From NCBI GenBank assembly GCA_964482735.1, contig CAYZYV010000001.1:16172-80171 (forward strand): a stretch of DNA of 64,000 bases, read 5' to 3'. Of the stretch, positions 3,627 to 60,700 are shown in pieces. The stretch is from an uncultured Candidatus Saccharibacteria bacterium (GTDB lineage: Bacteria > Patescibacteriota > Minisyncoccia > Phycocordibacterales > UBA9973). How positions within the stretch are numbered: the stretch's first letter is position 1; each line of letters starts with the position of its first letter. Position numbers and translations under genes: made by a program. The notes below the pieces were generated by a model. That model was not told the origin of the DNA, did no database searches, and saw only the letters and a program-made list of their open reading frames with translations.

Positions 3627-3686
3627 ATATTGTAAAACTTACACTAACATCTAACCAAACTTATATTGTAAACACTGCTCTATAAT

Positions 3687-3728
3687 TTGTGCGCCCCGTA
3701 GCTTTACTATTCTGGGGCCACCGACGCA
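3687..3728 (-). pseudogene. Internally deleted, degenerate copy of the tRNA-Tyr gene with conserved flanks.
   Basis: It shares ttgtgcgcc...ccccgtagc...ccaccgacgcatattgtaaaact with the intact locus but lacks the T-arm and anticodon arm. The same 3' flank (atattgtaaaact) follows both copies. Confidence 0.45.
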
Positions 3729-3775
3729 TATTGTAAAACTAATACTAACTACAATAGTATACACATTTTTTCTTT

Positions 3776-3812
3776 TTTTTCAAATACAAAAAAATAGAGG
3801 CCAAGCCTCTAT
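3776..3812 (-). terminator. Terminator hairpin downstream of the S51 peptidase gene.
   Basis: atagaggc-caa-gcctctat stem followed by a T-run on the minus strand. Confidence 0.5.
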
Positions 3813-3830
3813 TAATTTATTAGATTATCA

Positions 3831-4448: not shown

Positions 4449-4566
4449 AATTGTATGATTTTAGAGTGAATATTCAATTTCAACATAAATCTATCACATT
4501 AAGGCTTTTTGTCAAATATAACACAAGAATAAAAACGAAGGTTTTACCTTCGTTTTTATTCTTGTG

Positions 4567-7239
4567 TTACTTGGTTTTTTTAGAAACTTTAGTTTTCTTC
4601 TTTTTGTTTTCTACTAAAATTTCTTCATTTTTAACAGTAACTGAGATAACATCTCCTTTTTTTACACCCTTAGTAATTATGAGCATTGCTATTGGATTAA
4701 GTATCTTTTCTTGAATTAACCTAGATAGGGGTCTTGCTCCAAAATGAGGATCGTAACCTTCTTTGGCTAAATGATCGAGAGAACTTTCGGTTATTTCCAT
4801 CGTAATACCCTTCTCAAGTAATCTCTTTTCTGTGATCTTAATTTTTAGGTCGACTATTTGTCTAATCGCTTTTTCTGAAAGTATATCAAAGACAATTACA
4901 TCATCTAATCTATTTAAAAATTCTGGTTTAAAGAAATCTTTTAGAGCCCCCATGACTTTATCTTTAGTGATATCGTATTCATCTCGTTCTCCGTTATTAC
5001 TAAAACCCAACGATTCCATCTTTTGTATCAAGTGTGAACCAAGATTGGAAGTTAGAATAATAACAGTGTTTTTGAAATTTATTACTCTTCCCTTGCCGTC
5101 TGTTAGTCGTCCATCGTCTAAGACTTGTAATAAAACGTTTAAAACTTCAGGGTGAGCTTTTTCAACTTCATCAAACAATACCACAGAATAAGGTCTATGC
5201 TTTACGGCTTCTGTTAGGCTCCCAGATTCATCATACCCAACATATCCTGGTGGAGAACCAATAAGCTTAGACACACTATGTCTTTCTCCGTATTCACTCA
5301 TGTCTACTCTAACTAGAGCCTTATCATCATTAAACATAAACTCAGCTAAAGCTTTGGTTAATTCTGTCTTACCCACTCCTGTAGGTCCCAAGAATATGAA
5401 TGAACCAATTGGTTTATTTGGATCTCCAATACCAGCACGATTGCGTCTTACAACATCAGAAATCTTTTTAATAGCTTCATCCTGACCTATAACTCGTTTA
5501 TGCAATTCATCTTCCATGTGTGCTAGCTTTTCCATCTCTTCCTCGAGCATTTTTTGCAAAGGAATTCCAGTCCACCTTGAGACAACAGCCGCAACATCCT
5601 CCTCCGTTATTTCTTCTTTTAGTATTCTTCTAGACTTCTGTAGTTTTTTTAGACGAGAAAGCTTTTGATTTAGTTTATTTTGTAAATCTGGAATTCGTCC
5701 ATAGCGAATTTCCGCTGCCCTTCCTAGGTCAGCATGCATCTCAGCATTTTCAGCTTCTAATCTAAGAGATTCTAATTCTTTTTTAATGTTTCTAATTTCT
5801 ACAACAGTTTCTTTCTCGTTTTTCCACTTTAATTCCAATTCATAAGTTTTTTCTTTTAGATTAGCAATTTCTTTTTCGATATCTTTCAATCTAGATTTTT
5901 CTACCTTATGATTATTGCTTCCTTTTTCTCTTTCTATTTCTTTTGTTAACGCAGCTTTTTCTACTTCAAAACGCATTATCTTTCGATCTGCATCTTCCAA
6001 TATCTCAGGTTTATTTTCAAGCGCCAAACGTAGAGAAGATGAGGCTTCGTCAATCAAGTCAACTGCTTTATCTGGCAAAAAACGATTCGTTATATATCTA
6101 GCACTCAAATTGACCGCGGACAAAATAGCGTCATCTGTAATTCTTACTCCGTGGAATAATTCATACTTTTCTTTTAATCCCCGAAGAATTGCAACAGCAT
6201 CTTCTATGCTTGGTTCATCAATATAAACAGGCTGGAATCTTCTGGCTAGAGCTGGGTCTTTTTCAATATATTTCTGATATTCTTTTAAGGTTGTTGCCCC
6301 AATGGCTCGAAGCTCGCCTCTTGCAAGTGCTGGTTTTAGCATATTAGAAGCATCTAGAGATCCTTCAGAAGAACCAGCCCCGACGATTGTATGTATTTCA
6401 TCTATAAATAAAATTATCTGACCACTAGACCTTTCAATTTCTTTCATTATGCCTCTTAGCCTTTCTTCGAATTCCCCTCTGTATTTTGTTCCAGACAAAA
6501 GAAGTCCGAGGTCTAGCGAAACAACTTCTTTGTCTTTTAGACTCTCTGGAACATCATTTTTTGCGATACGAATAGCCAAGGCTTCTGCCACTGCAGTTTT
6601 ACCAGTTCCAGCTTCTCCTATGAGAATAGGATTATTTTTTGTTCGGCGAGAAAGAATTTGCATCATTCTCATTATCTCTGTATCTCTTCCGATAACAGGA
6701 TCAAGTTTATCCTCCCTAGCTAAAGCCGTCAGATTGCGAGTAAATTTAGCTAGAAGTTTAGGTTTCTTGGAGATGTTCATATCATTAATGTTTTCATCTC
6801 TGAGCTGTTTTAAAACTTCTATTACCTTATTTCTTTCTATTCTAAATCTCAAAAGCAAATCTCTTGCCTCTCCTTCGGTATCAAGCAAAGAAACGAATAG
6901 GTGTTCGGTGGATACAAATTCATCTTTTAAGGAAACAGCGACTTTGGCTGAATTTTCAATAATTTGAGCTAGGTCAGGAGTTAGGTAAATCTGAAACGAA
7001 GGAGAAATTGTATTACGATTCTCTGGTGACTCAATCATTTCTATCAAATTGTCAGTTAGTAAAACAGTATCAACGTCCATCTTGTCCAAGATAGAAACAA
7101 TAAGAGAATTTTCTTGAACCATCAGAGCCGTCAAAAGATGTAAGGAATTAACATGATTCTGCCCCCTTTCGACGGCTAGTTCATGGGACTTCCTGATAAC
7201 CTCCTTAGCTTTAGTTGTAAAATTATTAAATGGTGGCAT
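4567..7239 (-). CDS. clpB: ClpB chaperone (AAA+ disaggregase).
   Basis: It has a Clp_N domain, two AAA modules ([12 protein letters not shown] and [15 protein letters not shown]) and a long coiled-coil M-domain between them. Confidence 0.9.
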
Positions 7240-22012: not shown

Positions 22013-22825
22013 TTATCGAACGCAGCGAACATGATATCCATTGGCATGACTACCATCACCAAAGTTTCCGGTACCCATATACTGGAAGTAAGTATGCGTG
22101 GTGGGTGAAGACGGAACGAGATTAGAAGACCAGTAGTGAAGTGCTGCAAAACCAAACGGTGCCCAAGGGTCAGTATCTTCAGTGGAAGCTTTTGAATACC
22201 AGGCATGAGACAGTGTTCGAAGCTGTTCAATAGATGGAAGACGCCCACCATTTTTGGCACATGCATCTGCTGCAATGTATACACCATTGTTATCTTTCCA
22301 TGCCATAGTGATATCTGTTGAACTATTTGTTCCATCTATGTTTACTCCATGAGTATCCCATTTAACTACCCCATTTTCATCGACAGACCAAGCTTTAAGT
22401 TCACCTGAATCATAGATGAGAGCAGTGGCACCGAAACGTAAGTAGATATCACTATACGGAGTTCCATAGTAACTAAAACACTTAACAGCAACACCTTGGT
22501 CGATTAATGGTTGAGCAATCTTGGCTAGATTACCGGTAGTAATATCACCCGGAGATCCGTCTTCCTTTAAACCAGTACAATCTAAATTATAATATGAAAC
22601 ATTAGAATTAACAAAACTACCTTTTGTAACCTGATTTATCGCAGCTTGATTATATAGTTGTTTTAAAGTTGATTTGATAGTAGCTATCTTCCCCTTCTCT
22701 CTTGCAGAGTTTAATGAAGCAATAACAACAGCAGAAAGTATTCCAATGATAGCAATAACGACAAGTAATTCGATTAGTGTGAATCCTCTGGTTTTTTTGT
22801 CTGATTTTAAGAGTTTCTTTTTCAT
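22013..22825 (-). CDS. Type IV pilin-like protein with a C-terminal DUF1566/Lcl-like domain (paralog 2).
   Basis: [34 protein letters not shown] prepilin N-terminus and the conserved C-terminal block ending VRCVR. Confidence 0.7.
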   Translation of the reverse strand: MKKKLLKSDKKTRGFTLIELLVVIAIIGILSAVVIASLNSAREKGKIATIKSTLKQLYNQAAINQVTKGSFVNSNVSYYNLDCTGLKEDGSPGDITTGNLAKIAQPLIDQGVAVKCFSYYGTPYSDIYLRFGATALIYDSGELKAWSVDENGVVKWDTHGVNIDGTNSSTDITMAWKDNNGVYIAADACAKNGGRLPSIEQLRTLSHAWYSKASTEDTDPWAPFGFAALHYWSSNLVPSSPTTHTYFQYMGTGNFGDGSHANGYHVRCVR

Positions 22826-23779: not shown

Positions 23780-25249
23780 TTATTTTCTCAAAAACAAAGG
23801 TACTTCTGGTTTTTTGTTTTCTTTAATTAGTTCTTGAATTTTCTTTGAAGTTTCTGGCAAGAACGGCTCTATTGCAAGAGCACTTCCATACAAATGGTAT
23901 AACAAATAATGAACATCATTCTTTGCACCTTCTTCATCAACCTTAATCTTTTTAAAAGGTTCTGTTTTTTGTATGTATTCATCCAAGCCTCTTAAATCAA
24001 GCCAAATTTTATTTATGAATTTATTTATATCAAAAGACTCTAAGTCAGGAATTTCTTCTGTGTAATATTTAATGGATAATTCCTCTTCGTTTAATTTAAC
24101 TCCGTAGTTTGTCGCCATAGCCATCACACGACTTGTCAGATTACCCAACCCGTTTGCCAATCCTGAATTATATGCATCTTTAAATCTCTCTATCGTAAAT
24201 GGACTATCTTCAAAACTGCTAATTTCTTTCAACATAAAGAAACGAAGTGCATCTATTCCATATTCTTCTACCACGTCTCTTGGATCATAAGAAGTACCTA
24301 ATGATTTAGACATACGGACCCCACCCTCTCCTGTCACAAATCCATTAACAACTATCTGGTGAGAATTAGAAAGTCCAGCAGCCATAAGCATAGCTTGCCA
24401 CATTGCACTTTGAAAACGAGTGTTGTCTTTCCCGCAATATTGAGTAGGTGTACCATTCTGCCAATATTTTATAAATTTTTCTGATTTCAATAAATCATCG
24501 ATACTGTTCACGTTTTCCTCCGCCAAGGTGGAGACATAGTTTGATAAAGCATCAAACCACACGTACATCACTTGGGTATCGTCATTAGGAACAGATATTC
24601 CCCATGGCATCTTTTCTTTTAGTCGAGAGATAGAAAAATCTTGTAGTCCATTATTAACAAAATTTTTAATTTCATTTAATCTAAACTCGGGTATAACAAA
24701 ACTAGGATTATTTTCATAAAATTTCATGAGTTTATCACCAAAAGCTGAGTATTTGAAAAAATAATTTTCCTCATTTATCTCTTTTAAATCCATGTTTGGG
24801 TGATCCTTACATCGCCCATTTTCTATTTCCGAATCTGTTTTTTCGCTCTCACAACCAACGCAATATTTAGCAGTATAGTTTTTCTTGTAAATATAACCAT
24901 TTTCAAAAACCTTAGTCCAAAAGCTTTGAGCTATTTTGACGTGTTTTTCATCCGTCGTCCTTATAAAATTAATATCCTCTGTAAGACCAAAAATTTTAAT
25001 TTGTTCTTTAAAGATAGCAAAATTTTTATTTAAGAAATCTTGAACGTCTAATCCTTCTTCTTTTGCTTTCTCAAAAATCTTTACTCCATGTTCATCTGTT
25101 CCTGAATTAAAGTAAACATCATATCCAAGTAATTTTTTATATCGAGCAATACTATCCGCTCGTATAAATTCCAAAGCATGCCCCATGTGAAGTGGAGCAT
25201 TTATATATGGTAATGTTGTTGTTAAATAAAATGGTTTTTTGTTATTCAT
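23780..25249 (-). CDS. metG: Methionyl-tRNA synthetase.
   Basis: YINAPLHMGH (HIGH-type), a zinc knuckle and KMSKS (RMSKSLGT). Confidence 0.9.
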   Translation of the reverse strand: MNNKKPFYLTTTLPYINAPLHMGHALEFIRADSIARYKKLLGYDVYFNSGTDEHGVKIFEKAKEEGLDVQDFLNKNFAIFKEQIKIFGLTEDINFIRTTDEKHVKIAQSFWTKVFENGYIYKKNYTAKYCVGCESEKTDSEIENGRCKDHPNMDLKEINEENYFFKYSAFGDKLMKFYENNPSFVIPEFRLNEIKNFVNNGLQDFSISRLKEKMPWGISVPNDDTQVMYVWFDALSNYVSTLAEENVNSIDDLLKSEKFIKYWQNGTPTQYCGKDNTRFQSAMWQAMLMAAGLSNSHQIVVNGFVTGEGGVRMSKSLGTSYDPRDVVEEYGIDALRFFMLKEISSFEDSPFTIERFKDAYNSGLANGLGNLTSRVMAMATNYGVKLNEEELSIKYYTEEIPDLESFDINKFINKIWLDLRGLDEYIQKTEPFKKIKVDEEGAKNDVHYLLYHLYGSALAIEPFLPETSKKIQELIKENKKPEVPLFLRK

Positions 25250-26373: not shown

Positions 26374-27714
26374 TTACTGATTCAATTTTTCTTTTATATA
26401 GCTAACAATATCATCTTTTTTAATTCTCTCTTGGAATGCGGTATTTCTGTCTCGGATGGTTACGGTATCATTTTCCAAAGTTTCAAAATCGATAACAATA
26501 CACCAAGGAGTTCCTATTTCATCCTGTCGTCTATATCTCTTACCAATGTTCCCATTGTCATCCCACATTACCCTTCCGAATTCATCTTTTAGGTTTCGAT
26601 AAACCAGTCTAGCATAATCTTTTAATTCGGGTTTATTTTTTAGCAAAGGAGAAACTGCGCATACAACTGGAGCTATCGCTGGTTTAAAAGCAAGATATGG
26701 TCTAGGTTCTTCTCCGTTTAAATCTTCTTTATAAGCACCGAGCAAAATTGCTAGGACAGTTCTATCTACACCCAAAGAAGGTTCAATAACATGTGGTACT
26801 ATTTTCTCATTTGTCTCCTTGCCTGCCATAGCTATACCATCGGTATTGCGGGCAGGTTCGTCTTGGTAAGTAAGTTTATGTCTACTTAAATCAAAGTCTG
26901 TTCTATATGCCAAACCATACAATTCTTTTCTACCAAAAGGAAAATCAAATTCGAAATCTATCGTTCGTTTAGAATAATGGGCTAAGCTGTCTTTTGGAAC
27001 TTCTAATTCGTGAACCTTTGACATATCCAAACCTATCTCCTCCATCCATTCAATCATCTCTGTTCTCCAATACTCAAAATAATTTTCCCAATTATCACCT
27101 TTCAAGAAGTATTCTATCTCCATCTGTTCAAATTCTCGAACTCTGAAAATAAAATCTCGAGGGGTTATTTCATTACGAAATGCCTTACCTATCTGAGCAA
27201 GTCCAAAAGGAAGTTTTGGATGAAAAGAATCAACAACATTCTTGAAGTTCACAAACATACCCTGTGCGGTCTCTGGTCTTAAATAAATAGTTGCAGAAGT
27301 GTCCTCTACGGCCCCTATTTGAGTCTTAAACATCATATTGAAGGCTTTAGGGGTTCCTACAGCACTGCCACATTCATCACATATTCCAGGCTCTTTTAGG
27401 GCATCTTCTCTAAAACGCCTCTTGCATTTAGTACATTCAACCAACGGATCTGTAAAAGTATCTACGTGCCCTGAAGCTTTCCAAACATCTGGATGCATCA
27501 GTATCGCAGCATCTACTCCGTACATGTCTTCTCTCGATTCTACAAATTTTTTCCACCAAGAATTCTTGATATTATTTTTCAAGGCAACCCCCAGTGGTCC
27601 GTAATCCCAAGTTCCAGCTAGCCCACCATAAATTTCTGAACCTTGATAAATAAAACCCCTTCTCTTTGATAGAGAAATAATTGATTCCATAATTTTATTT
27701 TCTTCCTTTTTCAT
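26374..27714 (-). CDS. glyQS: Glycyl-tRNA synthetase, dimeric class II type.
   Basis: RGFIYQGSEIYGGLAGTWDYGPLG motif 1 region and class II motifs 2/3 (FRNE, GLDRT). Confidence 0.9.
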   Translation of the reverse strand: MKKEENKIMESIISLSKRRGFIYQGSEIYGGLAGTWDYGPLGVALKNNIKNSWWKKFVESREDMYGVDAAILMHPDVWKASGHVDTFTDPLVECTKCKRRFREDALKEPGICDECGSAVGTPKAFNMMFKTQIGAVEDTSATIYLRPETAQGMFVNFKNVVDSFHPKLPFGLAQIGKAFRNEITPRDFIFRVREFEQMEIEYFLKGDNWENYFEYWRTEMIEWMEEIGLDMSKVHELEVPKDSLAHYSKRTIDFEFDFPFGRKELYGLAYRTDFDLSRHKLTYQDEPARNTDGIAMAGKETNEKIVPHVIEPSLGVDRTVLAILLGAYKEDLNGEEPRPYLAFKPAIAPVVCAVSPLLKNKPELKDYARLVYRNLKDEFGRVMWDDNGNIGKRYRRQDEIGTPWCIVIDFETLENDTVTIRDRNTAFQERIKKDDIVSYIKEKLNQ

Positions 27715-27734: not shown

Positions 27735-29618
27735 CTAATTAGATACCCTACCGTTCCCTTCTCCAGCTGACGCCCCACTGATTGATGAGATGTATAAGTT
27801 ATTCATCGTGCTTCCAACCTGTGCACCAGAGTAGGAATCTGTTCCTGACAATGAGATGTTTTGTATCAAAAGTGGAGAGAGTCCTACTTGTGATATTGAT
27901 GGCTTAAAGTTCACAATAAAAGAAACTTCTCGGTTTGAATCCACCCCTGTTCCTGGTGGAACTGATCCTATCTTCCATGTAATTTCTCTTTTTTCTTTAT
28001 TGTAAGAAATATTTTCTTTTGTACCTGCAACAAATCCTACCCAATCAGTATAAATAGGTAAACTTGCTGTTACAAGAGCCTGACTAACACTGTTAGTAGA
28101 ATTGGATAATGTCCATGTCACCATATAATTAGTACTACCTTCTGCCCTAGGCGGCAAATCTCCAGTCAAATAAGATAATGATGAAGCCACTTGAAAATCA
28201 GTTTTTAATTTTATTTTTTTCTCTGTGAAATTATCTATATTAGAGAAGCTACTTCCGTATAATGGTTGGTTACCCTTTATACTTACGCTTATCACAGCCT
28301 GCGGATTCTTAATTCCAGAAAGTCCGGTTAAGCTCATAGGTGTGAAATCGAAAGAAACTTTCCCTGTTCCACCTGGCTCTATGGACGCAAGCTCTTTTAG
28401 AGTACTCTTATTCCAAATAATCTGCCCATTGAGAGAATCATAATAACCAGAAGTTTCTTTTATATTATTCTTATCAAGAATATTTCCAGTAATTTTTGCC
28501 ACTATTTCTGCATCGTTAATACTAGAAGAAAGATTATTTTTCCAAGTAATATCTACACTGACTTCTTGTCCACCCTTAACTGCATATTCTTCTTGGTCTT
28601 GATTGTTTACCAAAACTTTAATATCAAGAAACGGATTTTCTATAACCATCTTTTGTAAGATAGAACTGTAAACAACCCCCATTTTAGAAGTATCATTATT
28701 ATCTAACGTTCCTGCATAAGCATGGAAAACTTGTTCATCTCCAGTCTGCCCCATCAATTTACCTTTAAGCTCTATTGTTATTGGAGTGGTTTGAGTAATT
28801 GAAGATAAATCCCAAATATAATTATCGTTCATTGGCAACGGCTCAGCTGTTTCAAAAATAAAATTGCTAGGGTGTTTTAGTTGTAACACTAGATGATCAC
28901 TTGGCTGAGTTGTATTTAGGGTTGTAGTGATCTTGATAGAAACTGTTTGATTGGCAATTATACTATTAGGAGCTTCTACTTTTAGAGAAACAGGAGCTAG
29001 ACTAATAGTTACAGGGTAATACTTTTCTTTAGCAAAGGTAGCGTTAGATCCTTCTGGGCGATATTCTAAACTGGCCTTAATGTTCTTTATTGATTTTTCT
29101 GATCCATAAAGTTTTACTCTGATATTTCGAATAACAGTCTCTCCTGATTTTATGGTTCCAATCTCATCTTTATCTAAACGAATTATTTCAGAATCGTCAT
29201 TTGCCCCCTTAGGGTACTCGATCGTTAAAGACGCAGACTCTAAGCTTGCACTATTACGATTAGTTATCTCTATCTCTAAGGGTAAATCCTCACCCCCCTT
29301 AGTAAACGAGCTACCAATTATTTCCAAATCTATTTTATTTCCTGAAACAGTCGAGTCATCTAGGAAAAATTTATAAGCAGAATAACCAACTGCTCCGATG
29401 AAGAATATAATGGACAGTATAAAAAATTTTTTAAAAAAAGAAGTTTTTATTTTTTTATTTTTATTAGGCATTTCTTCTGTTTTTGGTTTATCCCATTCAT
29501 CTTTTACATCATATCTTTGTTCTCTTAAAGCCCCTCTTCTATAACTAGTTGACTCGTCGTAATTGGGATCATATAGTTTTCTTTTTAAATCTTCAATTTT
29601 TCCTTTGTTTTCTGACAT
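27735..29618 (-). CDS. Large single-pass membrane protein with a beta-rich extracytoplasmic repeat region. A surface protein is likely.
   Basis: ~60-aa charged cytoplasmic N-terminus, one TM (FFILSIIFFIGAVGYSAY), then ~550 aa rich in T/S/N/V with repeated strand-like segments. Confidence 0.4.
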   Translation of the reverse strand: MSENKGKIEDLKRKLYDPNYDESTSYRRGALREQRYDVKDEWDKPKTEEMPNKNKKIKTSFFKKFFILSIIFFIGAVGYSAYKFFLDDSTVSGNKIDLEIIGSSFTKGGEDLPLEIEITNRNSASLESASLTIEYPKGANDDSEIIRLDKDEIGTIKSGETVIRNIRVKLYGSEKSIKNIKASLEYRPEGSNATFAKEKYYPVTISLAPVSLKVEAPNSIIANQTVSIKITTTLNTTQPSDHLVLQLKHPSNFIFETAEPLPMNDNYIWDLSSITQTTPITIELKGKLMGQTGDEQVFHAYAGTLDNNDTSKMGVVYSSILQKMVIENPFLDIKVLVNNQDQEEYAVKGGQEVSVDITWKNNLSSSINDAEIVAKITGNILDKNNIKETSGYYDSLNGQIIWNKSTLKELASIEPGGTGKVSFDFTPMSLTGLSGIKNPQAVISVSIKGNQPLYGSSFSNIDNFTEKKIKLKTDFQVASSLSYLTGDLPPRAEGSTNYMVTWTLSNSTNSVSQALVTASLPIYTDWVGFVAGTKENISYNKEKREITWKIGSVPPGTGVDSNREVSFIVNFKPSISQVGLSPLLIQNISLSGTDSYSGAQVGSTMNNLYISSISGASAGEGNGRVSN

Positions 29619-30345: not shown

Positions 30346-33300
30346 TTATTTTACCACCTTAATTACAAAAGTTAAATCTGCAATTTTTACTTCTATCCCA
30401 TCATTGTCTTCATACTCTATCGTCTTAGCAGATACTAATTTTTGAATATTTTCCTTAAAGAGGTTTACTAGATTTTTACCACTCTCATCGGTTTTGACTA
30501 CAAGAGTAATCACATCATTAGGATTCAACTCGTTTTTCTTTCTTATGTCTTGAATAGCCCTAACAAGTTCTCGATAATAACCCTCAAGTTTCAAATCTTC
30601 AGTGATATTTGTATCGAGAATAACCTCAAGTTCTTGTCCTTCTTCAAATTTTACATTTTTGATATTTAATTCATCTTTTAGAATAGAAACATATTCTTCT
30701 TTTAGGTTGTATTTTTTAAGTGTTATTTCACGAAGAGGTTGTCTAACAGGAATTCCTGCTTTTTGTCGGTTTTGTAAACCTAGTGTAACTATTTCTCTTA
30801 ATTCTTTCATTTCCTCTATGACTTTCTCTTCATAGCTAATAGCCTCTGGCCAGCTAGAGAAATGGACACTCTCCGGATCACCTTCTAATTTTAACTTCTG
30901 CCATATATCCTCGGCTGAAAATGGAGCGAACGGAGCAAATAGTCTCGCCATTGTTTTAAATACAAAATAGATGGTTTGTTTAGCTTCTGTGTCTCCATCT
31001 TTAATTCTGTCTCTTGAACGGCGTAAATACCATGTAGATAAATCATCTATAAAATTTCTAGCTGCCCTTACAGGCTCAAGTAATTTGTAATCTTCTGTGT
31101 TATCTGTCATAACTTTGATTAATTCTCCGAGCTTAGCCATAATCCAGATGTCCAGCACATTTTTACTTTTTGGCATATCGTTCGATTCAATTTTTGTATC
31201 TCTGTATAGTTCATAAAAAGCCAAAACATTATAGAACAAATTGAAAAACTTATTATTTAATTCTGCAACGGTTTTCTCATCAAAATTTTTCGGTTCACCA
31301 GGTTGATTGATTGAATACATCCAGAGACGAAGAGCATCCACTCCATATTTATCTATCATAAGCCACGGGTCTACTCCATTACCAAGCGACTTAGACATTT
31401 TCTTGCCATTAGCATCAAGCACAAGTCCGAGACAAATTACGTTCTTGAACGCTTTACCTTTGTTCATAATTGTTCCAACAGCATGAAGAGTATAGAACCA
31501 ACCTCTTGTTTGGTCTATTCCCTCACTAATAAAATCAGCAGGGTAAGAAATATCCTTTGTGCTAAATGGGTAATGACTCTGAGCAAAAGGCATGGACCCT
31601 GAATCAAGCCAAACATCCATAACTTCTTTTGTTCTTTCTAATTTACCACCACAATCACAAGTAAGATGAATATCATCAATATATGGTCTGTGTAGGTCTA
31701 ATTCATAATTTTCATCATGAGGAATTAGTTTGAAATCAAGTTCTCTAATTTCCGAATTGGTAAGACAAGAAAAGTTCTTTAACATTGAGAGAGATTCTTT
31801 TGCTCCGTAACCATTTATTCCTGCAATCATAAGCCAGGCTGGCCCTCCGTGGGTTACGATTAATATATTTTTATCTTGATATTTGTTTTCTAAATCGTAC
31901 AAGAAATCCATTGATCTTTTTCTCAACTCATTCCATGTCTCACTACCTTCTTCTGTTTTATAGAAATTTTCTTCTGTATTAGGATAATCATTGTGATAAT
32001 CTTGCCATGTTTTTCCTTCGTATTTAGAAACTTTGTATTCTGTTAAATTCTCATCTATCAAAATCTTTTCAGTATCGTATCCTAAAATTTTTGCAACTTC
32101 ATTTGCTGTTTCTTTTGCTCTTGTTACAGGAGAAGATATTATTAAGTCTATTTTTTCATCTTTGATTTTTTCTGCGTTATTTCTAGATTCAGTTATACCT
32201 TTCTCTGTTAGGTGACTTACTCGATATTCATCTTTTGTATTTATCTTTCCATCAATATTGTTTTCTGCCTCTCCATGACGCATAACAAAATACTTATTGC
32301 CAGAAGTTTTTGCTTTAGATTTTATATCTTCTAAACTTCCAAGTACTTCTATCTTGCCACAAGTATCACACTTCCAAACAGGAAGTGGTGTCCCCCAATA
32401 TCTTTCTCGTGATATTGCCCAATCTTTAATATCTTTTAGCCATTCACCAAATCTCCCCTCTTTTATGTAAGATGGTTCCCAGTTAATGTCTTCATTCTCT
32501 TTCATCATTTTGTCACGGAGAGCCGACATTTTTATATACCAAGAATCTCGAGCGTAGTAGACAAGGGCTGTTTTACATCTCCAGCAGTGAGGATATGTGT
32601 GTTCGTATTTTTCTTTTTTAAACAAGAGGTTTCTTCCTGATAAATCTTTCATTATATCTATTGCAACATCTTCATTTCTGACGAACCTTCCAGTCAAGAA
32701 ATCTGTTCCTTCTAAGAATTTTCCATCAAGCCCAACAAGGTGGCATTTAGGAAGCCCAACCTTATTACCCAAGTCGAAGTCATCTTGTCCATACATTGGA
32801 GCTATGTGTACAACACCTGTTCCATCTTCTGTTGTCACAAAATCTGCTCCATAAATTTTATAAGCATTTTCTAACTTTTGTTCTTCTTCTTTGTTAACCA
32901 AAGATTTTGTATATGGATATAGAGGCTCATAAGAAAGGCCAAGTAAGTCTTTACCTTTTAATTCCTTAACAATTTTATATTCACCATCCAAGATTGATAG
33001 ACGAGACTTCGCAAGAATCAAAAGTTCTCCGTTCTGTTCTACCAAAACATAATCAATATCTTCTCCAACAGCCAATGCAACATTCGAAGGAAGTGTCCAC
33101 GGCGTTGTTGTCCAAACTAAAACACAGATTTCTTCGCTCGCATGCTTCCCTGAAGAAATTTTAGAACACGAATCTCCTGTTAATTTAAATTTCACATACA
33201 CTGTAATATCTTTAACATCTTGGTATCCTTGAGCTAATTCGTGTGAAGAAAGCCCCGTTCCACATCTTGGACACCATGGCACAATTTTGTAATCTTTAAA

Positions 33301-33813
33301 AAGTAAATCTTGCTTGGAAGCTTCTTTAATAACATTCCAAACTGATTCAATGTAATCATTGTGATAAGTAACGTAAGGATTTTCTTGATCTACCCAAAAA
33401 CCTATTCTGTCTGTAAATTTATGCCACAAATCTGTGTAGTTCCATACGCTCTTCTTGCATTCTTTATTAAATTTATCTATTCCGTATTCTTCAATTTCCT
33501 TTTTCGATTCTAGGTTTAATTTTTTCTCAACTTCAATTTCTACAGGAAGACCATGAGTGTCCCATCCGCCTTTTCTGGTAACATGGTAACCTTGCATTGT
33601 CTTATAACGTAAAATAGCATCCTTAAAAGCCCTCGCTTCCAAGTGGTGAATTCCAGGCTTGCCATTAGCAGTTGGGGGACCTTCATAGAAAACATATTCC
33701 CCTTTTGGAGAATCTTTTTCTAAACTCTTTTCGAAAATTTTGTTCTCTTGCCAAAATTCTAAAACTTTTTCTTCCCGAAGTGTATTATTTGATTTTTCTT
33801 TTTCTTCATTCAT
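30346..33813 (-). CDS. ileS: Isoleucyl-tRNA synthetase carrying an inserted histidine-phosphatase (PGAM-like) domain within the zinc knuckle.
   Basis: IleRS signatures (GWDTHGLPVE, CP1 editing region, KMSKSLGN). Between CDTCGK (aa ~482) and HLTCDCGG (aa ~717) lies a ~165-aa module. It begins FVMRHGEAENN (RHGE at nt 32269-32280) and ends ILIVTHGGPAWLM, the two catalytic hallmarks of the histidine phosphatase superfamily. Confidence 0.9.
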   Translation of the reverse strand: MNEEKEKSNNTLREEKVLEFWQENKIFEKSLEKDSPKGEYVFYEGPPTANGKPGIHHLEARAFKDAILRYKTMQGYHVTRKGGWDTHGLPVEIEVEKKLNLESKKEIEEYGIDKFNKECKKSVWNYTDLWHKFTDRIGFWVDQENPYVTYHNDYIESVWNVIKEASKQDLLFKDYKIVPWCPRCGTGLSSHELAQGYQDVKDITVYVKFKLTGDSCSKISSGKHASEEICVLVWTTTPWTLPSNVALAVGEDIDYVLVEQNGELLILAKSRLSILDGEYKIVKELKGKDLLGLSYEPLYPYTKSLVNKEEEQKLENAYKIYGADFVTTEDGTGVVHIAPMYGQDDFDLGNKVGLPKCHLVGLDGKFLEGTDFLTGRFVRNEDVAIDIMKDLSGRNLLFKKEKYEHTYPHCWRCKTALVYYARDSWYIKMSALRDKMMKENEDINWEPSYIKEGRFGEWLKDIKDWAISRERYWGTPLPVWKCDTCGKIEVLGSLEDIKSKAKTSGNKYFVMRHGEAENNIDGKINTKDEYRVSHLTEKGITESRNNAEKIKDEKIDLIISSPVTRAKETANEVAKILGYDTEKILIDENLTEYKVSKYEGKTWQDYHNDYPNTEENFYKTEEGSETWNELRKRSMDFLYDLENKYQDKNILIVTHGGPAWLMIAGINGYGAKESLSMLKNFSCLTNSEIRELDFKLIPHDENYELDLHRPYIDDIHLTCDCGGKLERTKEVMDVWLDSGSMPFAQSHYPFSTKDISYPADFISEGIDQTRGWFYTLHAVGTIMNKGKAFKNVICLGLVLDANGKKMSKSLGNGVDPWLMIDKYGVDALRLWMYSINQPGEPKNFDEKTVAELNNKFFNLFYNVLAFYELYRDTKIESNDMPKSKNVLDIWIMAKLGELIKVMTDNTEDYKLLEPVRAARNFIDDLSTWYLRRSRDRIKDGDTEAKQTIYFVFKTMARLFAPFAPFSAEDIWQKLKLEGDPESVHFSSWPEAISYEEKVIEEMKELREIVTLGLQNRQKAGIPVRQPLREITLKKYNLKEEYVSILKDELNIKNVKFEEGQELEVILDTNITEDLKLEGYYRELVRAIQDIRKKNELNPNDVITLVVKTDESGKNLVNLFKENIQKLVSAKTIEYEDNDGIEVKIADLTFVIKVVK

Positions 33814-34208: not shown

Positions 34209-35003
34209 TTATCGAACACATCGAACCTTATAAAGGTCTGAGGCCTTATAAGCATAATCAATTCTACCACTAACCGTATTAATTAAATAAGCCAAACTAG
34301 AATTTTTAATAGATGTATTATTAGTCCAGTAAAAGTAACCGTTAGAAAAACCCGTAGGATAATAAACGGTACTTCCTGAACCTTGATACCATGCATGAAA
34401 TAAAGTCCGTATTTGTTCAAAGGATGGAAGTCGTCCGCCGTTCGTAGCACAAGCAGTATTTGCCGTATTCCAACTCATTGTAGAGTCAGGGGTAACTGTA
34501 TCACCTAAAGAGGTAACACCTTGTGTATCCCATTTAACTATTCCGTTTTCATCAACAGACCAAGCCTTGAGTTCACCCGTGTCATATATTAAAGCCGTAG
34601 CTCCGAAACGTTGATAATCATCGCCAGGGTAGATTCCACCGCTTCCCGTTCCATAAAGACTAAAACATTTAACAATTACACCTTGATCAATTAGAGGTTT
34701 AGCAATTTTAGCTAAGTTGCCGGTAGTAGTATCACCTTGTGAGTCGTCTGAATTTAACCCCGTACATGCTAAATCGGTATCTGAAGAATTCGAATAAATA
34801 AAACTACCTTTGTTTAATTGGTTTAATGCAGCCTGATTGTATAGTTGTTTTAAAGTTGATTTAATTGTGGCTATCTTTCCCTTTTCTCTTGCAGAGTTCA
34901 GAGAAGCAATAACTACAGCAGAAAGAATACCAATGATAGCAATTACAACCAATAACTCTATCAACGTGAATGCTTTATTAGATTTTAGAGATTCCTTTTT
35001 CAC
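34209..35003 (-). CDS. Type IV pilin-like protein with a C-terminal DUF1566/Lcl-like domain (paralog 3). It starts at GTG.
   Basis: [31 protein letters not shown] and a conserved C-terminus ([27 protein letters not shown]...NGGRLPSFEQ...VRCVR). Confidence 0.7.
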   Translation of the reverse strand: MKKESLKSNKAFTLIELLVVIAIIGILSAVVIASLNSAREKGKIATIKSTLKQLYNQAALNQLNKGSFIYSNSSDTDLACTGLNSDDSQGDTTTGNLAKIAKPLIDQGVIVKCFSLYGTGSGGIYPGDDYQRFGATALIYDTGELKAWSVDENGIVKWDTQGVTSLGDTVTPDSTMSWNTANTACATNGGRLPSFEQIRTLFHAWYQGSGSTVYYPTGFSNGYFYWTNNTSIKNSSLAYLINTVSGRIDYAYKASDLYKVRCVR

Positions 35004-35515: not shown

Positions 35516-37240
35516 TTACATTTTGTCTGGAATTTTTATACCAAGAAGCCATAGGCCATTCTCCATTGTTTGGTAAAAAGCTTTTATGAGGTCTAGATGA
35601 TATTTGGCACACTTGTTGTCATCAACTAAAATTCTTGTATTCCCATAGAAGGCGTTAAAGGTGCTTGCTAGTTCTGTCAGATATTTAACTATATGATGAG
35701 GCTCTAAGTTAAGATATGATTTTTCAACAACTTCACCAAATTGATATAGGTTCTTTTCTAATTCAAAAATTTCATCTGGTATTTCTTCTTTATCACTCAA
35801 ATCAAAATCTTTTGATTTTTCTAAAATCGAATTAGCACGAACTGCAGTGTACTGTAAATAAGGGCCTGAATCACCATCAAAAGAAATAGATTTTTCAAAG
35901 TCATAAGCAATATCAGAACCAAGTGATGATTTTAAAATAGAATAGCGAAGTGCTGAGACACCAACCCTCTCCGAAATTTGATTCTTTTCTTCATCGCTAA
36001 ATTCACGTTCTCTAATTTTTTCTCGAACGACAGAAATAGAATCGTTTATTAGAGACTCCCCAGTGATTATGTTTCCTTTTCGTGATGACATTTTACCTGT
36101 TGAAAGCTTCATCATTCCATGCGTTACATGCTTCATTTTCTTTTCCATTTCTGGATACATTAAAGATATGGCCTTTCTGACAACCTTCATATACTCAGCT
36201 TGTTCTATTGCAGTTGTAACGATTGAGATATCAAGGTCTTTTTCTTTTTCAAACTTAGTTAGAGTAAGACCGATCTCTTTTGTTTCATAAGTAGGAACTC
36301 CATGAGAATTGATAAAGACACGAGTGTGTAATTTTGGATCATAATTTTCTCCATGGAAAATAACGGCTCCGTCTGATTCCTCAAAAATTTTACCAATATT
36401 TTCTCGAACAATTTTCTCTCCTATGTGAACCATATCACTTTCAAAAAAGTAATACTTAAATTTCGTATCAAGAAGTTTATAAATTATTTCAAAAGCTTCG
36501 AGAGTAATTTCCCTCCCCCAATTATAAACATCTTTTATACTTTCATCCTTCAAAAAGATTTTCTTGTTTAATTCGTCTATTTCTTTCTTAACCGTCTCGT
36601 CATCGTCATAAATATTACTTGCCTTTGAATAGCATTCACCTATGTAAATCGCTTTCTCTGAAACATTTTTATTTTCATCGGGTAAGCCAAATTTATTAAG
36701 ACCATAAATAGCTTTGGCAACGTGAAGGCCTATATCTCCTTGATAGTTTGCTCTTATAGTTTCAGCACCAGAAAATTCAACGATTCTAGAAACCGATTCC
36801 CCTACAGCGTTGGCCATTAAGTGTCCTATGTGAAATGGCTTAAATGGATTTGGATCTGTATATTCAACCATGACCTTCTTACCTGCCAAAATTTCATTTT
36901 TGCCCCAATTCTCTTTCTTGTCTAATATCTCTTTTATCTTGTTTGTAAAAAACTCACGAGATAAATAAAAGTTTATAAACCCAGGACCAGCAATTTCTAT
37001 TTTCTCAATGCCTGATGATAAACTTTTTTCTATTTCTACTTTAATTTCCTCCGATAATTGTCTAGGGTTCTTTCCTGTTCTCTTCGCACAGACCATCGCC
37101 ACATTCGTCGAATAATCTCCATGGCTAAAATCATCAGGATGTTCAACCGTGAAATCTACATCTTTTATTCCAAGATTTTCTAAAACTTCTTTAATTTTAT
37201 TTTCTATTATTTTTTTCATTTTATTTTCCTGTTGAACCAA
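35516..37240 (-). CDS. argS: Arginyl-tRNA synthetase.
   Basis: Class I HIGH (PFHIGHLMANAVGES) and an MSSRKG (MSTR-like) motif. Length and domain order fit ArgRS. Confidence 0.9.
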   Translation of the reverse strand: MVQQENKMKKIIENKIKEVLENLGIKDVDFTVEHPDDFSHGDYSTNVAMVCAKRTGKNPRQLSEEIKVEIEKSLSSGIEKIEIAGPGFINFYLSREFFTNKIKEILDKKENWGKNEILAGKKVMVEYTDPNPFKPFHIGHLMANAVGESVSRIVEFSGAETIRANYQGDIGLHVAKAIYGLNKFGLPDENKNVSEKAIYIGECYSKASNIYDDDETVKKEIDELNKKIFLKDESIKDVYNWGREITLEAFEIIYKLLDTKFKYYFFESDMVHIGEKIVRENIGKIFEESDGAVIFHGENYDPKLHTRVFINSHGVPTYETKEIGLTLTKFEKEKDLDISIVTTAIEQAEYMKVVRKAISLMYPEMEKKMKHVTHGMMKLSTGKMSSRKGNIITGESLINDSISVVREKIREREFSDEEKNQISERVGVSALRYSILKSSLGSDIAYDFEKSISFDGDSGPYLQYTAVRANSILEKSKDFDLSDKEEIPDEIFELEKNLYQFGEVVEKSYLNLEPHHIVKYLTELASTFNAFYGNTRILVDDNKCAKYHLDLIKAFYQTMENGLWLLGIKIPDKM

Positions 37241-56357: not shown

Positions 56358-57722
56358 TTGCATAGACTTAGCAAAACGCTCAAATTGCGTCATCAATATA
56401 ATATGGAGACGCAATATATAAGCAATTTAGGAGTAAGGACAGAGGTACCCAAAACCAAGATTCGGTATGTCCTGTACGCTCGAAAATCAACCGAATCAGA
56501 CGAAAAACAAGCCCTGTCTATCGAATCACAGGTTAAGGAAATGCTTGCTATAGCCGACCGTGATAGTTTAACAGTTGTTGATATTAGACGTGAATCTCAC
56601 TCGGCTAAAGAATCTGGGCAACGACCAGTGTTTAGAGAGGTATTAGAGGATGTAAGACGTGGCAGGTATAACGGTATACTCACCTGGGCACCTGATCGTC
56701 TATCTAGAAACGCAGGCGACCTCGGATCGGTTGTTGATCTAATGGACGAAACAAAACTTTTAGAAATTCGTACATACGGTCAACATTTCAAAAATTCACC
56801 AAACGAGAAATTCCTTTTGATGATTTTGTGTTCCCAGGCTAAACTCGAAAACGACAATAAAAGTATCAACGTAAAGCGAGGCTTACGAACGAGATGCGAA
56901 ATGGGACTTCGCCCTGGTCCTGCTGTTGTTGGATATCTCAACGAAAAACGAATGGATAAAAAATGTGAGGTTGTGATAGACCCAGAACGAGCACCGATAG
57001 TTAAACAAATGTTTGAAAAAGTGGCATACGAAAAATGGTCAGGCAGAAAACTATATCATTGGCTTAAGTTTGATCTTAATTTCAAAACTCGTAGTGGTAA
57101 CAAAGGTCTTACTCTTAGTAATATTTATCTCATACTTCAAAATCCATTTTATTATGGGGTTTTTGAATATCCACGAAAAAGCGGAAACTTTTATACAGGT
57201 AGACATGAACCAATAATCAATAAAGAACTTTTTGAATTGGTTCAAGAGCAAGTTAAAAGCCAAGCATTACGGACCCAAGAACCAAAAGAATTTGCTTTTA
57301 CAAAAATGATGACTTGTGGGCTTTGTGGATCAGGAATCTGTGCTGACGAAAAGTTTAAAAAGTTAAAAGACGGATCAGTGAATAGACATATCTATTATGG
57401 ATGTACTAGATCTAAAGATAAAAATTGTAAGTGTGGGTATATAAACGAGATTGAATTAATACAGCAATTTGAAAAGTTAATTGAACAAGTAAATATCAAT
57501 GAGATAGGAATGAAAGAGAAGATTAAATATGAAGTTGAGCGAATCAAACGCTTTAATCAATCTGTATTAAATACAAAACAGCAGATACAAATAAAAGACG
57601 TAGACATTAGAGACTACGCCAAATTTATTTTGAAAGAAGGTTTGATTGAGGAGAAACGAGAATTATTAACTTGTTTTAAGAGCAAGATTTTATTAAAGAA
57701 TAAAGAAATTTGTCTTAATTAA
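56358..57722 (+). CDS. Large serine recombinase (resolvase catalytic domain, recombinase domain and zinc ribbon).
   Basis: YVLYARKSTESDEKQALSIESQ (catalytic Ser), ILTWAPDRLSRN and the Cys cluster CGLCGS...YYGCTRSKDKNCKCGY. Confidence 0.85.
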   Translation: MHRLSKTLKLRHQYNMETQYISNLGVRTEVPKTKIRYVLYARKSTESDEKQALSIESQVKEMLAIADRDSLTVVDIRRESHSAKESGQRPVFREVLEDVRRGRYNGILTWAPDRLSRNAGDLGSVVDLMDETKLLEIRTYGQHFKNSPNEKFLLMILCSQAKLENDNKSINVKRGLRTRCEMGLRPGPAVVGYLNEKRMDKKCEVVIDPERAPIVKQMFEKVAYEKWSGRKLYHWLKFDLNFKTRSGNKGLTLSNIYLILQNPFYYGVFEYPRKSGNFYTGRHEPIINKELFELVQEQVKSQALRTQEPKEFAFTKMMTCGLCGSGICADEKFKKLKDGSVNRHIYYGCTRSKDKNCKCGYINEIELIQQFEKLIEQVNINEIGMKEKIKYEVERIKRFNQSVLNTKQQIQIKDVDIRDYAKFILKEGLIEEKRELLTCFKSKILLKNKEICLN

Positions 57723-60700
57723 GAATTGCGCACAATTTCTTTTTCTTCTTTATTTAAACCATACACTTCCATAACATAATCGTCTATCTGTTTTTCTAGG
57801 TTATCAGTATCTACAATTCCATCATTCTTTAATCTTATTACTTGTTCAACTAAATCAGATATCTTATTTACTAATTCTTCAGATTCAGAGGTAATTTTAG
57901 GAATAGGTAAAATCTTAAGTGTTGTAATTAGTATTTGTGGATGCAAATCTACACCCTTCAATCTTTTTGAATTATAATAATAATTTAAAACGGACGAATT
58001 CATACACGCAAGAATAAAAGACAACCTATATTTGTTTTTGAATTGATCCTTTAAATAGGTACTATGGATCGAGTTTGAAACAAAATATTGCGATCTATCA
58101 ATACTCCCTTTTAGTTGAGCACTATTTTGTGATGTTATAATTTTTTCAGGTTGTAAAAATATTTCTCTATCTCTAAGTTGCACCTTTCTTAATTCTTCGA
58201 CATCACTTATATATTTTCTTGCTTCATTTATATCGTAACAAAGGTACATCTCTTCTGCTGAAAAATGATATCTATCTAGCTTATAAGTACCAGAAACACC
58301 AGCAAACTTAACATACCGATCATCTATTTTTAGATTGCTAAGCATTTTTTCTCTAATATAAGGAACTATTCCATCTCGTACCTCACAAATATCAGCAAGT
58401 ATCTGTTGATCTTTTTCAATTTTTCTCAAAAGTGAATGATCAAATTTTGATATGTTAATGTTTATTTCCTCATTTTCTTCAAAAACGCTTTGCTGTACTT
58501 GAATAAAATCTAAGTTGCTGGATTTATAAAAATCTGGCTTATTACAAATTTTTATTGAATTACCAACTAAATGTTTTGAAAAAAGCACAATCATAAATTC
58601 GTCTTTTGCTGATTCAAAACCCGCATCCTTTCCTAAATATATTATTTCATTTATTGATAATCTTTTTAAAACATATTCCTGAAAGGCTCCATGATTTCTT
58701 TTTCGAGAAAAAAGTCGATAAGGAATTATATAGCAAATATTAAAATCTTCTTTTGCAACACGATGAGCCAACTCAACAAATATCGCCGCTGTATCCTGTC
58801 TACCAGATTTTACACTTTCATACGTATCCTTAAAGAATTTTCTCTCTTCATCATTTAGGTCCGCATTGTACGGAGGATTGCCGATTATAACATCAAATTT
58901 ATCTTGTAACCCAAACATCCACTCAGCATCAAACCAGTTATTTGAATGATTTCCGAACGGATTCCATGTTGTAAGTTTCAGGGTTAGTTCTCCTGTATTT
59001 TTTCCAAACGCTGATACTGTTTTCTCTAATATATCTTTTTGAGCATTAGTAAATCTAATTTTCAGTTCATTTTTTCTCTGACTATTACAAGAGAAGTACT
59101 CTGACATTATCTTTGATAGTTCTGTAATTCCTGAATGATCATCGAAAAGATTTGTTGCAGTTGATTTAGGTAGAGAAACAAGTGTATTTGCACATACGAA
59201 TTTAAAGTCCAGGTTTGGAAGTGGTTCTATCCCTCGATTTGGTTTATTGTCATCTATTTCAGATTCAACAACCAAGGTCAAAAAGCATCGCAGACGAGAT
59301 ACATCTACAGCGATTGGCTGAATATCTACTCCAAAGATTGAGTTCTTTATAACATCAAGTTTTCTGGTGTAATCAAATGGATTTTGCTTTACCTCATTGA
59401 TTATTTTTTGTTTATATAAATCTGGAACTCCTTTTAGTTTCCTTTCTAGCCAAAGAGTACAGTCAGGGTCAACTTGTTGTAGTATGTAAACTATCTTTTG
59501 AAGTGCACCGATAGGATAAGCTCCTGATCCACAAGCAGGGTCTAGAATTTTTAATGATTCAATAGCATCGATTATTTGCTCTTTTTCTTTTTGAACTAAC
59601 GGATATTCTGTATCGTCAGTAAGATCATAACTAACCAAAGCTGTTAACTTTTTCTCTTCGATGCCTGTCTTGGTCTTAAAATATTCAATCAAAGATTGAT
59701 CTACCATGTACTCAACAATCTGTCTTGGCGTATAGAAGCTACCTGTATCTTTCTGTTCATTTTTGCCAGTTTCAGAATCAATTTTCTTTGCGAGAAGGTT
59801 TTCAAAAATCTTTCCAAGCATTTCAGGATCAACTGAAAGCTCTTGATCAAAAACGGTGTTTTCATCAATAGTGAAATTGTATGTCTCTAGAAGTTCAAAA
59901 AACTCTTTAAACCACTTATCACTTATTTTAAGAGTATTGATGTATTTTGAAGCAAAGGTACCACGATCAAGTTCATAATAATCATCAGATTGTGGATTAA
60001 ACAAACCTCCGTTTAGATACGGCACCTTGTCAAAAAGCTCATTTCGAATATCACGAGCGTCGATACTTGTATTCAAAACGCCAAAGAAAAGAGGTTCAAG
60101 AGTATTGTGATAGTAATTATCAGATACAACTTTTGAAGATAAGATCTCGTCAGGAACAAGTTGTCCATTATCTGATTTTTTCTGCTTCAAAAACCAACAA
60201 AACATCGCACGACCAATAAGTCGAACAGCAAAGCTTTTTCGCGTATTTATATCTGTTTCTGATACTCCAGGAAGAATTAGGTTTTGATCTTCTATTGAAA
60301 CCAATTCATCAAAGAATTTTGCAACTTCTAGGTAGAATTGCTTATTTACAACTTCAACAGAAAACCGATTAAGCAGATCATCTACATCCTTAATTTTCCC
60401 TTTTTTAATAAGTTGTTGTTCTGGAGTTTTAACCTTTGCATTAGTTCCTAGATAAAAAGAATAGCGTCGTGCGTTTGAGTACTTTTTAACAACTTTATTC
60501 TTATCATTAAGATCGAGAGATATTGTAAGGTATGAAAAACGATAATTATCAGAATCTTTGTTTTTAAAGATGACTAATGCTCTATGGATCCAGTGATCAG
60601 CGAGAATTTTGAATGCATCAGTGGCGATAGCTACTCGGGGATCCTTATCGTGATTGTGATCCATTTCCAAAACATGCAAATCTAATGATTCACAAAAACC

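Follow-up and report, generated by a model that had tools for sequence, protein, structure and literature searches.

A histidine phosphatase domain nested in the CP3 zinc knuckle of isoleucyl-tRNA synthetase in Patescibacteria

Can an essential aminoacyl-tRNA synthetase carry a second, unrelated enzyme inside its catalytic domain and, if so, what might that enzyme act on? The question is raised by ileS, the gene for isoleucyl-tRNA synthetase (IleRS), on a 64,000-nucleotide stretch of contig CAYZYV010000001.1 (hereafter the window), which was assembled from an uncultured bacterium. A sequence-only reading of the window had described a complete histidine phosphatase domain within the zinc knuckle of this synthetase. 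Aminoacyl-tRNA synthetases are among the most conserved enzymes, and the editing domains are to our knowledge the only hydrolytic domains nested in synthetase catalytic cores. A phosphomonoesterase nested in the catalytic domain of an essential synthetase, with its catalytic residues intact across hundreds of uncultivated minimal-genome species, would be unusual against this background. As judged from profile matches and alignments, the protein is a bona fide IleRS in which the two Cys pairs of the knuckle in connective polypeptide 3 (CP3) enclose a complete branch-1 histidine phosphatase. Domain names of IleRS follow PMC7191050 and PMC7955072, and coordinates of all features are collected in Table 1.

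The synthetase part of the protein matches established families. The gene is a single open reading frame (ORF) without stop or frame break. The NCBIfam model for ileS (TIGR00392) matches in two stretches flanking the insert with 887.1 bits, against an equivalog cutoff of 621.4, and the Pfam families found are tRNA-synt_1 (PF00133), Anticodon_1 and the type-2 C-terminal domain DUF5915 (amino acids (aa) 1033-1154). The closest solved structures are the IleRS2 enzymes of Priestia megaterium (8c8w, E=2e-239) and Thermus thermophilus (1ile, E ~1e-236), with far weaker matches to the IleRS1 structures 8c9f and 1ffy (E ~1e-96). The window IleRS is assigned to the type-2 (eukaryote-like) enzymes, with the type-2 C-terminal domain in place of IleRS1's zinc-binding domain. 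We aligned 181 family sequences, of which 180 are full-length members having the insert. The KMSKS motif is conserved across the family and the editing motifs TTTPWT and GTGVVH are kept at each position in 174-180 of the 181 sequences, except for position 4 of GTGVVH (Val in 127). An IleRS of 1155 aa with all the hallmarks of its family had been proposed from the sequence, and this identification holds. With the KMSKS and editing motifs conserved, the IleRS part is intact.

Two features of the synthetase part deviate from the most familiar enzymes. The class I signature has the non-canonical form GIHH (GXHH instead of HXGH), and its first position is G in 140 and the canonical H in 35 of the 181 family members. 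The GXHH form has been described for part of IleRS2, where the swap leads to mupirocin hyper-resistance (PMC10485003). The acquired mupirocin-resistance synthetases MupA and MupB were rejected as identities of the window enzyme, which scores 768 and 787 bits against an exception-model cutoff of 1900. In the C-terminal region of the window IleRS (window ~30346-31000), the alignment leaves approximately 80 residues of P. megaterium IleRS2 (about 855-910) unmatched, which would fit a missing INS subdomain of ARD2 as described in bioRxiv 10.64898/2026.02.03.703510. The window enzyme shares full-length homology, the CP3 zinc motif, DUF5915 and the editing motifs with the IleRS2 of P. megaterium and T. 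thermophilus. In contrast to both, it has ~196 extra residues, constituting the phosphatase, between the CP3 Cys pairs.

The insert itself is recognized by a single family. His_Phos_1 (PF00300) matches aa 509-676 along profile positions 2-168 of 194, with 110.2 bits against a gathering score of 21.7 (E=1.3e-31), and the PF00133 match is cut in two around it. The profile search had been proposed along with the sequence-only reading, and its outcome supports a complete domain. Four motifs named in that reading (CDTCGK, FVMRHGEAENN, ILIVTHGGPAWLM and HLTCDCGG) were recovered inside or beside window positions 31600-32400, the region that it had marked. The predicted catalytic set consists of R512, the nucleophile H513, R565, the proton donor E592 and H655. 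The four Cys of the knuckle (C482/C485/C719/C721) align with C461/C464/C502/C504 of T. thermophilus IleRS, the CP3 zinc ligands, which we take to be the second zinc site of that enzyme. The two pairs are spaced by 37 residues in T. thermophilus IleRS and by 233 in the window IleRS. Across the 181 family sequences, C482 is retained in 160, C485 in 156 and the second pair (CDC) in 159, so that ~88% of members have the zinc ligands and a minority lost all four.

The borders of the insert can be drawn from the alignment to P. megaterium IleRS2, in which query aa 7-497 pair with residues 7-474 and aa 690-1061 with residues 472-854. This leaves a net insertion of ~196 aa (about aa 498-695). The module had been estimated at ~165 aa from the sequence; its presence is confirmed and its size was underestimated, because the fold continues for ~35 residues past the THG motif to the last strand NSEIRELDF. 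The phosphatase fold opens with strand KYFVMR at ~aa 505 and closes with its last strand, EIRELDF, at ~aa 694, after which CP3 sequence (PHDENYELDLHRPYIDD) resumes. The junctions are short and highly conserved, with SGNKY ahead of the domain and PHxENYELD behind it. The reading frame continues through the insert within one ORF, in agreement with the earlier view of an internal fusion and not a split gene.

A nested architecture could also be an artefact or a mobile insertion, such as an assembly chimera, a frameshifted neighbour gene or an intein-like element. The breadth of the family leaves this explanation almost no probability. In a search with the full-length query, the best 120 of 8000 matches are all IleRS of 1138-1270 aa with both PF00133 and PF00300, at 61-92% identity. 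Their named sources include Candidatus Nomurabacteria, Paceibacterota and Pacebacteria. An exhaustive search with aa 460-760 against 1.84 billion cluster representatives (50% identity clusters) yielded at least 215 with E<=1e-30, and among the 150 best listed nearly every alignment runs unbroken from one flank through the insert to the other, at 34-51% identity. A relative is encoded by 466 genomes in a scan of one genome per GTDB species, among them Parcubacteria RAAC4_OD1_1, Nomurabacteria GW2011_GWE1_32_28 and Campbellbacteria. An intact long IleRS ORF was found in 67 of 84 loci, and the loci examined are syntenic with the window in the order ArgRS, IleRS, RecO and a large protein. A chimera or frameshift is ruled out by the continuous frame together with the same architecture in hundreds of independent assemblies from many projects. 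A generic connective-polypeptide insertion with chance RHG and THG motifs is ruled out by the PF00300 match (E=1e-31) and the fold match described below. Searches for Hint, intein or homing-endonuclease families at E<=0.01 returned none, and the insert is wholly accounted for by His_Phos_1 in Pfam. A comparison with related genomes had been proposed to see whether the insertion is lineage-wide, and it is. Judged by these comparisons, the phosphatase-bearing IleRS is inherited across a large clade of Patescibacteria comprising Paceibacteria, Nomurabacteria and Parcubacteria.

Fragmented genes are the only observation in favour of an artefact. Some public assemblies have the IleRS called as two or three consecutive ORFs, at loci L001 (4720-8242), L002, L083 and L020. 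L001, L002 and L083 look like indel-ridden assemblies in which ileS and/or many neighbour genes are fragmented. At L020, the two ORFs (3522-5768 and 5765-6940) meet in a clean 4-base overlap ~65 codons past the phosphatase domain, which may be due to a frameshift error or mark a gene that is truly split. A free-standing ancestor of the insert beside ileS was also considered and rejected. One apparent free-standing phosphatase relative (P0014) proved to be a fragment of a broken IleRS and was discarded. Another (P0011) is truly free-standing and lies in an unrelated gene context (locus L084). A hidden Markov model (HMM) of the insert found no other copy within the 64-kb window. In the IleRS-bearing loci, covering a few kb either side of ileS, it had no match outside the IleRS ORF, and the one other match was the gene of P0011. 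Taxonomic labels in the family are uneven. Member P0162 is labelled Burkholderiales, and many metagenome-assembled genomes with this IleRS (CAY.../CAZ... records) are labelled 'uncultured Candidatus Saccharibacteria'. Both labels are probably generic or mis-binned because the sequences group with Paceibacteria/Nomurabacteria.

Whether the domain retained a function can be addressed by its conservation. Among the 180 members with the insert, mean pairwise identity is 39% in the insert and 58% in the rest of the protein. Only 5 of 190 insert columns are strictly invariant (180/180 members), namely R512, H513, G539, R565 and H655. Four of these five form the Arg-His...Arg...His catalytic set, which by calculation would occur by chance with a probability of ~1e-7. 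At the proton-donor position E592, 177 members have Glu and the other 3 have Asp, and N519 of the phosphate pocket is Asn in 166. Because the catalytic residues are strictly kept while the rest of the insert diverges, the pattern in the alignment is that of selection for catalysis and is unlike that of a decaying or purely structural module. A non-catalytic role, in which the retained phosphatase fold modulates IleRS by sensing a ligand or as a structural element, would fit the faster evolution of the domain relative to the rest of the protein and its variable cap region. Pseudo-enzymes typically lose catalytic residues though, and here these account for four of the five invariant columns in 180 diverged members, with a proton donor that is always Glu or Asp. 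We thus consider a non-catalytic module very improbable. These sequence patterns give good support to a functional IleRS that harbours an active phosphatase.

By analogy with the established mechanism of the superfamily, the phosphatase domain is likely catalytically active. The phosphomonoester would be held by R512, R565, H655 and N519 and attacked by His513, generating a phospho-His513 intermediate. E592 would donate a proton to the leaving group, and water would then hydrolyse phospho-His513. The gene product would accordingly be bifunctional, combining a fully functional, editing-competent type-2 IleRS with a complete branch-1 histidine phosphatase of ~190 aa. The phosphatase is proposed to have been inserted at the tip of the CP3 zinc-binding hairpin in an ancient event, and to have been vertically inherited in the Patescibacteria clade since.

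Structure prediction points to the same superfamily. The AlphaFold2 model of the full-length protein has a predicted local distance difference test (pLDDT) of 87.6 and a predicted template-modelling score (pTM) of 0.79, with pLDDT 85-96 across the insert. The isolated domain reaches pLDDT 93.9 and pTM 0.91. Foldseek against the PDB retrieved 287 matches at E<=1e-3, and all 50 listed belong to the histidine phosphatase superfamily. The best matches (template-modelling score (TM) 0.76-0.78, E ~1e-13) are monomeric small-molecule phosphatases of ~200 aa with a short helical cap. They include the glucosyl-3-phosphoglycerate phosphatase GpgP (Rv2419c), PspA, PhoE, a riboflavin-pathway phosphatase (HFP), CobC and the phosphoserine phosphatase of E. 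histolytica. Cofactor-dependent phosphoglycerate mutase (dPGM) structures are matched less completely (target TM 0.59-0.66) because the insert lacks their larger cap. The insert resembles PhoE (1h2e), PspA (4ij5), CobC (6e4b) and Rv2419c (4pza) in fold, size, cap and catalytic residues. It differs in sequence (~20-27% identity) and in being nested in another enzyme instead of free-standing.

None of the characterized specificities fits the domain at the level of family models. CobC alpha-ribazole phosphatase (TIGR03162) was rejected at 74.1 bits against an equivalog cutoff of 162.9. The same applies to cofactor-dependent phosphoglycerate mutase, both as dPGM_arch (NF038349, 72.6 against 225) and as GpmB (NF002901, 38.7 against 261). 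The SixA phosphohistidine phosphatase model (TIGR00249) scores 39.1 against 74.5, with a match confined to aa 509-593. The phosphoserine phosphatase PspA of this superfamily (NF045917) scores 46.5 against 350, its similarity being structural only. A model for RNase H/acid phosphatase (NF005567) reaches 71.7 bits, which is below the family cutoff. As no NCBIfam equivalog cutoff is reached, the insert is placed within the histidine phosphatase superfamily and outside every characterized specificity group. Its net charge of ~-2 per 100 aa is mildly acidic, the same as in free-standing relatives, and in this comparison of net charge the insert shows no basic nucleic-acid-binding signature.

The CP3 domain is not the only insertion in the IleRS of this clade. 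The longest family members were scanned against Pfam, a biased sample given that the proteins were retrieved with a phosphatase-containing query. In P0313, the CP3 knuckle is normal and uninterrupted, and an intact His_Phos_1 domain is found elsewhere, in a loop where the anticodon-binding domain begins (site 2). Both sites are occupied by phosphatase domains in four members (P0307, P0314, P0290 and P0308), and a tandem pair is found in P0320. The site-2 domains all retain the catalytic residues. The histidine phosphatase (HP) domains are all ~27-39% identical to each other without any resolvable grouping that would bear on whether site 2 arose by duplication from site 1. Architectures with site 2 look rare, as a further search of a word-indexed database yielded one more fragment (P0329). 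Two members with the CP3 phosphatase carry additional modules of other families. P0311 has a P-loop kinase-like domain after the DSGSMP strand (aa ~746-869; Walker A GACGAGKT, with weak AAA_18, AAA_33 and Zeta_toxin matches), and P0327 has a NUDIX domain (aa 226-343) close to where the editing domain starts. The site-2 phosphatase, kinase-like and NUDIX inserts therefore point to an IleRS that has repeatedly accreted phosphate- or nucleotide-handling modules in different surface loops.

Histidine phosphatases are found fused to other enzymes in a few known systems. Rv2228c joins an RNase H to a CobC-like domain and PFK-2/FBPase-2 joins a P-loop kinase to a phosphatase, both end to end. The pairing in PFK-2/FBPase-2 is echoed by P0311. 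MutT1 similarly joins a phosphatase to a nucleotide-handling NUDIX domain, as echoed by P0327. Hydrolysis of 8-oxo-GDP by the HP domain of MutT1 was considered and set aside for want of support in the literature consulted. All three differ from the window protein in being end-to-end fusions and not nested, and none involves an aminoacyl-tRNA synthetase.

The phosphatase could act on protein, either on IleRS itself or on a partner (phosphohistidine, phosphoserine or phosphothreonine), for instance to reverse inhibition by a kinase or toxin or to regulate signalling. HipA-type kinases inactivate aminoacyl-tRNA synthetases by phosphorylation, and the superfamily includes protein phosphatases. Mycobacterial MutT1 is a precedent for the pairing of NUDIX and phosphatase domains seen in P0327, and sensor kinases are dephosphorylated by its SixA-like C-terminal domain (PMC12407098). 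The low score of the SixA model argues against a protein substrate, as does the helical cap that is typical of small-molecule enzymes. Furthermore, no conserved kinase adjoins ileS in the 84 loci inspected. A protein phosphatase is thus an unlikely reading of the domain.

We suggest instead that the substrate is a small phosphomonoester, either a nucleotide or a phosphorylated metabolite, and neither tRNA nor protein, with IleRS mainly serving as a scaffold. We give this reading a probability of roughly 0.5. The synthetase would be a constitutively expressed scaffold through which a streamlined genome keeps the phosphatase co-localized and co-expressed with its translation machinery, and the phosphatase would have no part in the aminoacylation chemistry itself. 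The reading is favoured because the closest folds are capped small-molecule enzymes, because the domain is acidic and because equally intact copies occur at site 2. From the known architecture of IleRS, site 2 likely lies far from the acceptor end of the tRNA. The topology of the fold is a further reason, as strand 1 leads into the RHG loop at its junction-distal end, suggesting an outward-facing pocket. Taken together, the capped fold, the acidic domain and the second insertion site lean to a small phosphomonoester and mildly against action on a tRNA 3' end that depends on geometry. The sequence-only reading had offered a nucleotide by-product, an alarmone or a tRNA end as possible substrates. 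A Rel/SpoT homologue of only 487 aa in the same window (352-1815, plus strand) is relevant to the alarmone. It has HD, RelA_SpoT and TGS domains, so that (p)ppGpp is probably both made and broken down in this organism.

Several observations weigh against a small-molecule phosphatase that is merely carried by the synthetase. CP3 begins directly after the CP2-CP3 linker (here IKDWAISRERYWG), which in yeast IleRS helps to form the pocket for the CCA end of the tRNA (PMC7955072). The short and highly conserved linkers, together with the pTM of 0.79, suggest fixed docking, which could reflect functional coupling over passive carriage. Repeated recruitment to IleRS and the NUDIX and kinase-like inserts hint at a specific link with this synthetase that a pure scaffold leaves unexplained. 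Similarity to small-molecule folds is also compatible with macromolecular substrates.

Some of the same evidence speaks for a tRNA-end phosphatase, which would provide a built-in end-healing or anti-toxin step. Such an enzyme would be well placed in CP3, immediately after the linker of the CCA-binding pocket, and its junctions are short and conserved. The P-loop kinase-like domain in one relative and the NUDIX domain in another recall the kinase-phosphatase and pyrophosphohydrolase sets of RNA-end repair. Toxins of the toxSAS type pyrophosphorylate the CCA end of tRNA. We know of no member of the histidine phosphatase superfamily that acts on RNA ends though, and the closest folds are those of small-molecule phosphatases. 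The acidity of the domain, the intact copies at site 2 and the apparently outward-facing pocket likewise speak against a tRNA end as substrate. We regard this explanation as distinctly unlikely. A broader proposal would couple the phosphatase, along with the second phosphatase, NUDIX and kinase-like modules, to tRNA charging as a built-in repair or immunity device. Before aminoacylation, such a device might clear phosphate or pyrophosphate off tRNA-Ile 3' ends that were damaged or modified by a toxin, or undo inhibitory phosphorylation of the synthetase. This proposal is speculative and we think it unlikely to be correct.

The arrangement has few parallels among synthetases. The CP1 editing domain of IleRS, ValRS and LeuRS is likewise hydrolytic and nested, occupying a connective-polypeptide loop within the Rossmann fold. 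It differs from the domain described here in being universal and in hydrolysing mischarged aminoacyl esters, whereas the window domain has a phosphomonoesterase fold, sits in CP3 and occurs in one bacterial clade. The NCBIfam entry NF040702 (isoleucine--tRNA ligase, N-acetyltransferase domain-containing) is another IleRS hosting an extra enzymatic domain. The extra domain in this case is a GNAT, and at 330 bits the window protein stays below the cutoff of 1999 for this entry. A literature search found no paper describing an IleRS-phosphatase fusion, including a 2026 preprint on IleRS domain evolution and the AARS Online paper. Both parts belong to textbook families, and the combination is already visible in public sequence databases and precomputed Pfam domains. 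Database names of phosphatase-bearing IleRS are often 'class I tRNA ligase family protein' or 'histidine phosphatase family protein, partial', an automatic under-naming due to the nested architecture. If the phosphatase is coupled to tRNA charging, it would represent a new form of translational quality control or toxin resistance. If it is an independent housekeeping activity riding on IleRS, it would be a clear example of streamlined genomes packing functions by domain nesting.

Table 1. Position of ileS, its segments and key motifs in the window (positions of the 64,000-nucleotide stretch; aa numbering of the window IleRS).
Feature	Position	Strand	Basis
ileS, 1155-aa type-2 IleRS with nested phosphatase domain	30346..33813	-	ORF, TIGR00392, structures 8c8w/1ile, motifs
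aa 1-474: Rossmann first half, CP core, CP1 editing domain, CP2, CP2-CP3 linker (IKDWAISRERYWG)	32392..33813	-	Pfam, alignment to P. megaterium IleRS2
Class I signature GIHH, aa 54-57	33643..33654	-	motif
aa 475-504: CP3 N-terminal half, zinc pair C482/C485 (CDTC), conserved linker KSKAKTS	32302..32391	-	alignment to T. thermophilus IleRS
CDTCGK, aa 482-487	32353..32370	-	
aa 505-694: His_Phos_1 branch-1 domain	31732..32301	-	PF00300, conservation, AlphaFold2, Foldseek
FVMRHGEAENN, aa 509-519	32257..32289	-	
Codon of H513	32275..32277	-	
ILIVTHGGPAWLM, aa 650-662	31828..31866	-	
Codon of H655	31849..31851	-	
aa 695-730: CP3 C-terminal half (PHDENYELDLHRPYIDD), zinc pair C719/C721 (CDC)	31624..31731	-	aligns to T. 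thermophilus IleRS 488-504
HLTCDCGG, aa 716-723	31645..31668	-	
aa 731-1155 and stop: Rossmann second half with KMSKS, anticodon-binding domain, DUF5915	30346..31623	-	Pfam, motifs, alignment
KMSKS, aa 805-809	31387..31401	-	

Four aminoacyl-tRNA synthetase genes, ileS among them, lie within 14 kb, all on the minus strand, at 23780-25249, 26374-27714, 30346-33813 and 35516-37240. They encode MetRS, a class II enzyme (tRNA-synt_2b and HGTP_anticodon), IleRS and ArgRS. The succession of ArgRS, IleRS, RecO, a large unknown protein and the class II synthetase is seen again in L001. A 627-aa protein (27735-29618, minus strand) has an N-terminal transmembrane-like segment and no Pfam match, and one of similar size (649 aa) is found at the same place in L001. 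Two paralogous type IV pilin-like proteins of 270 and 264 aa are encoded on the minus strand at 22013-22825 and 34209-35003, the latter directly upstream of ileS. Both have an N-terminal methylation motif and an Lcl C-terminal domain. Further along the window, a large serine recombinase gene (56358-57722, plus strand) adjoins a gene for an Eco57I/N6-methylase-type protein (57719-60841, minus strand). The latter has a 4-base overlap with the gene of a PLD-domain SNF2-type helicase (60838-63972, minus strand), and the region 56358-63972 looks like a mobile restriction or defence island.

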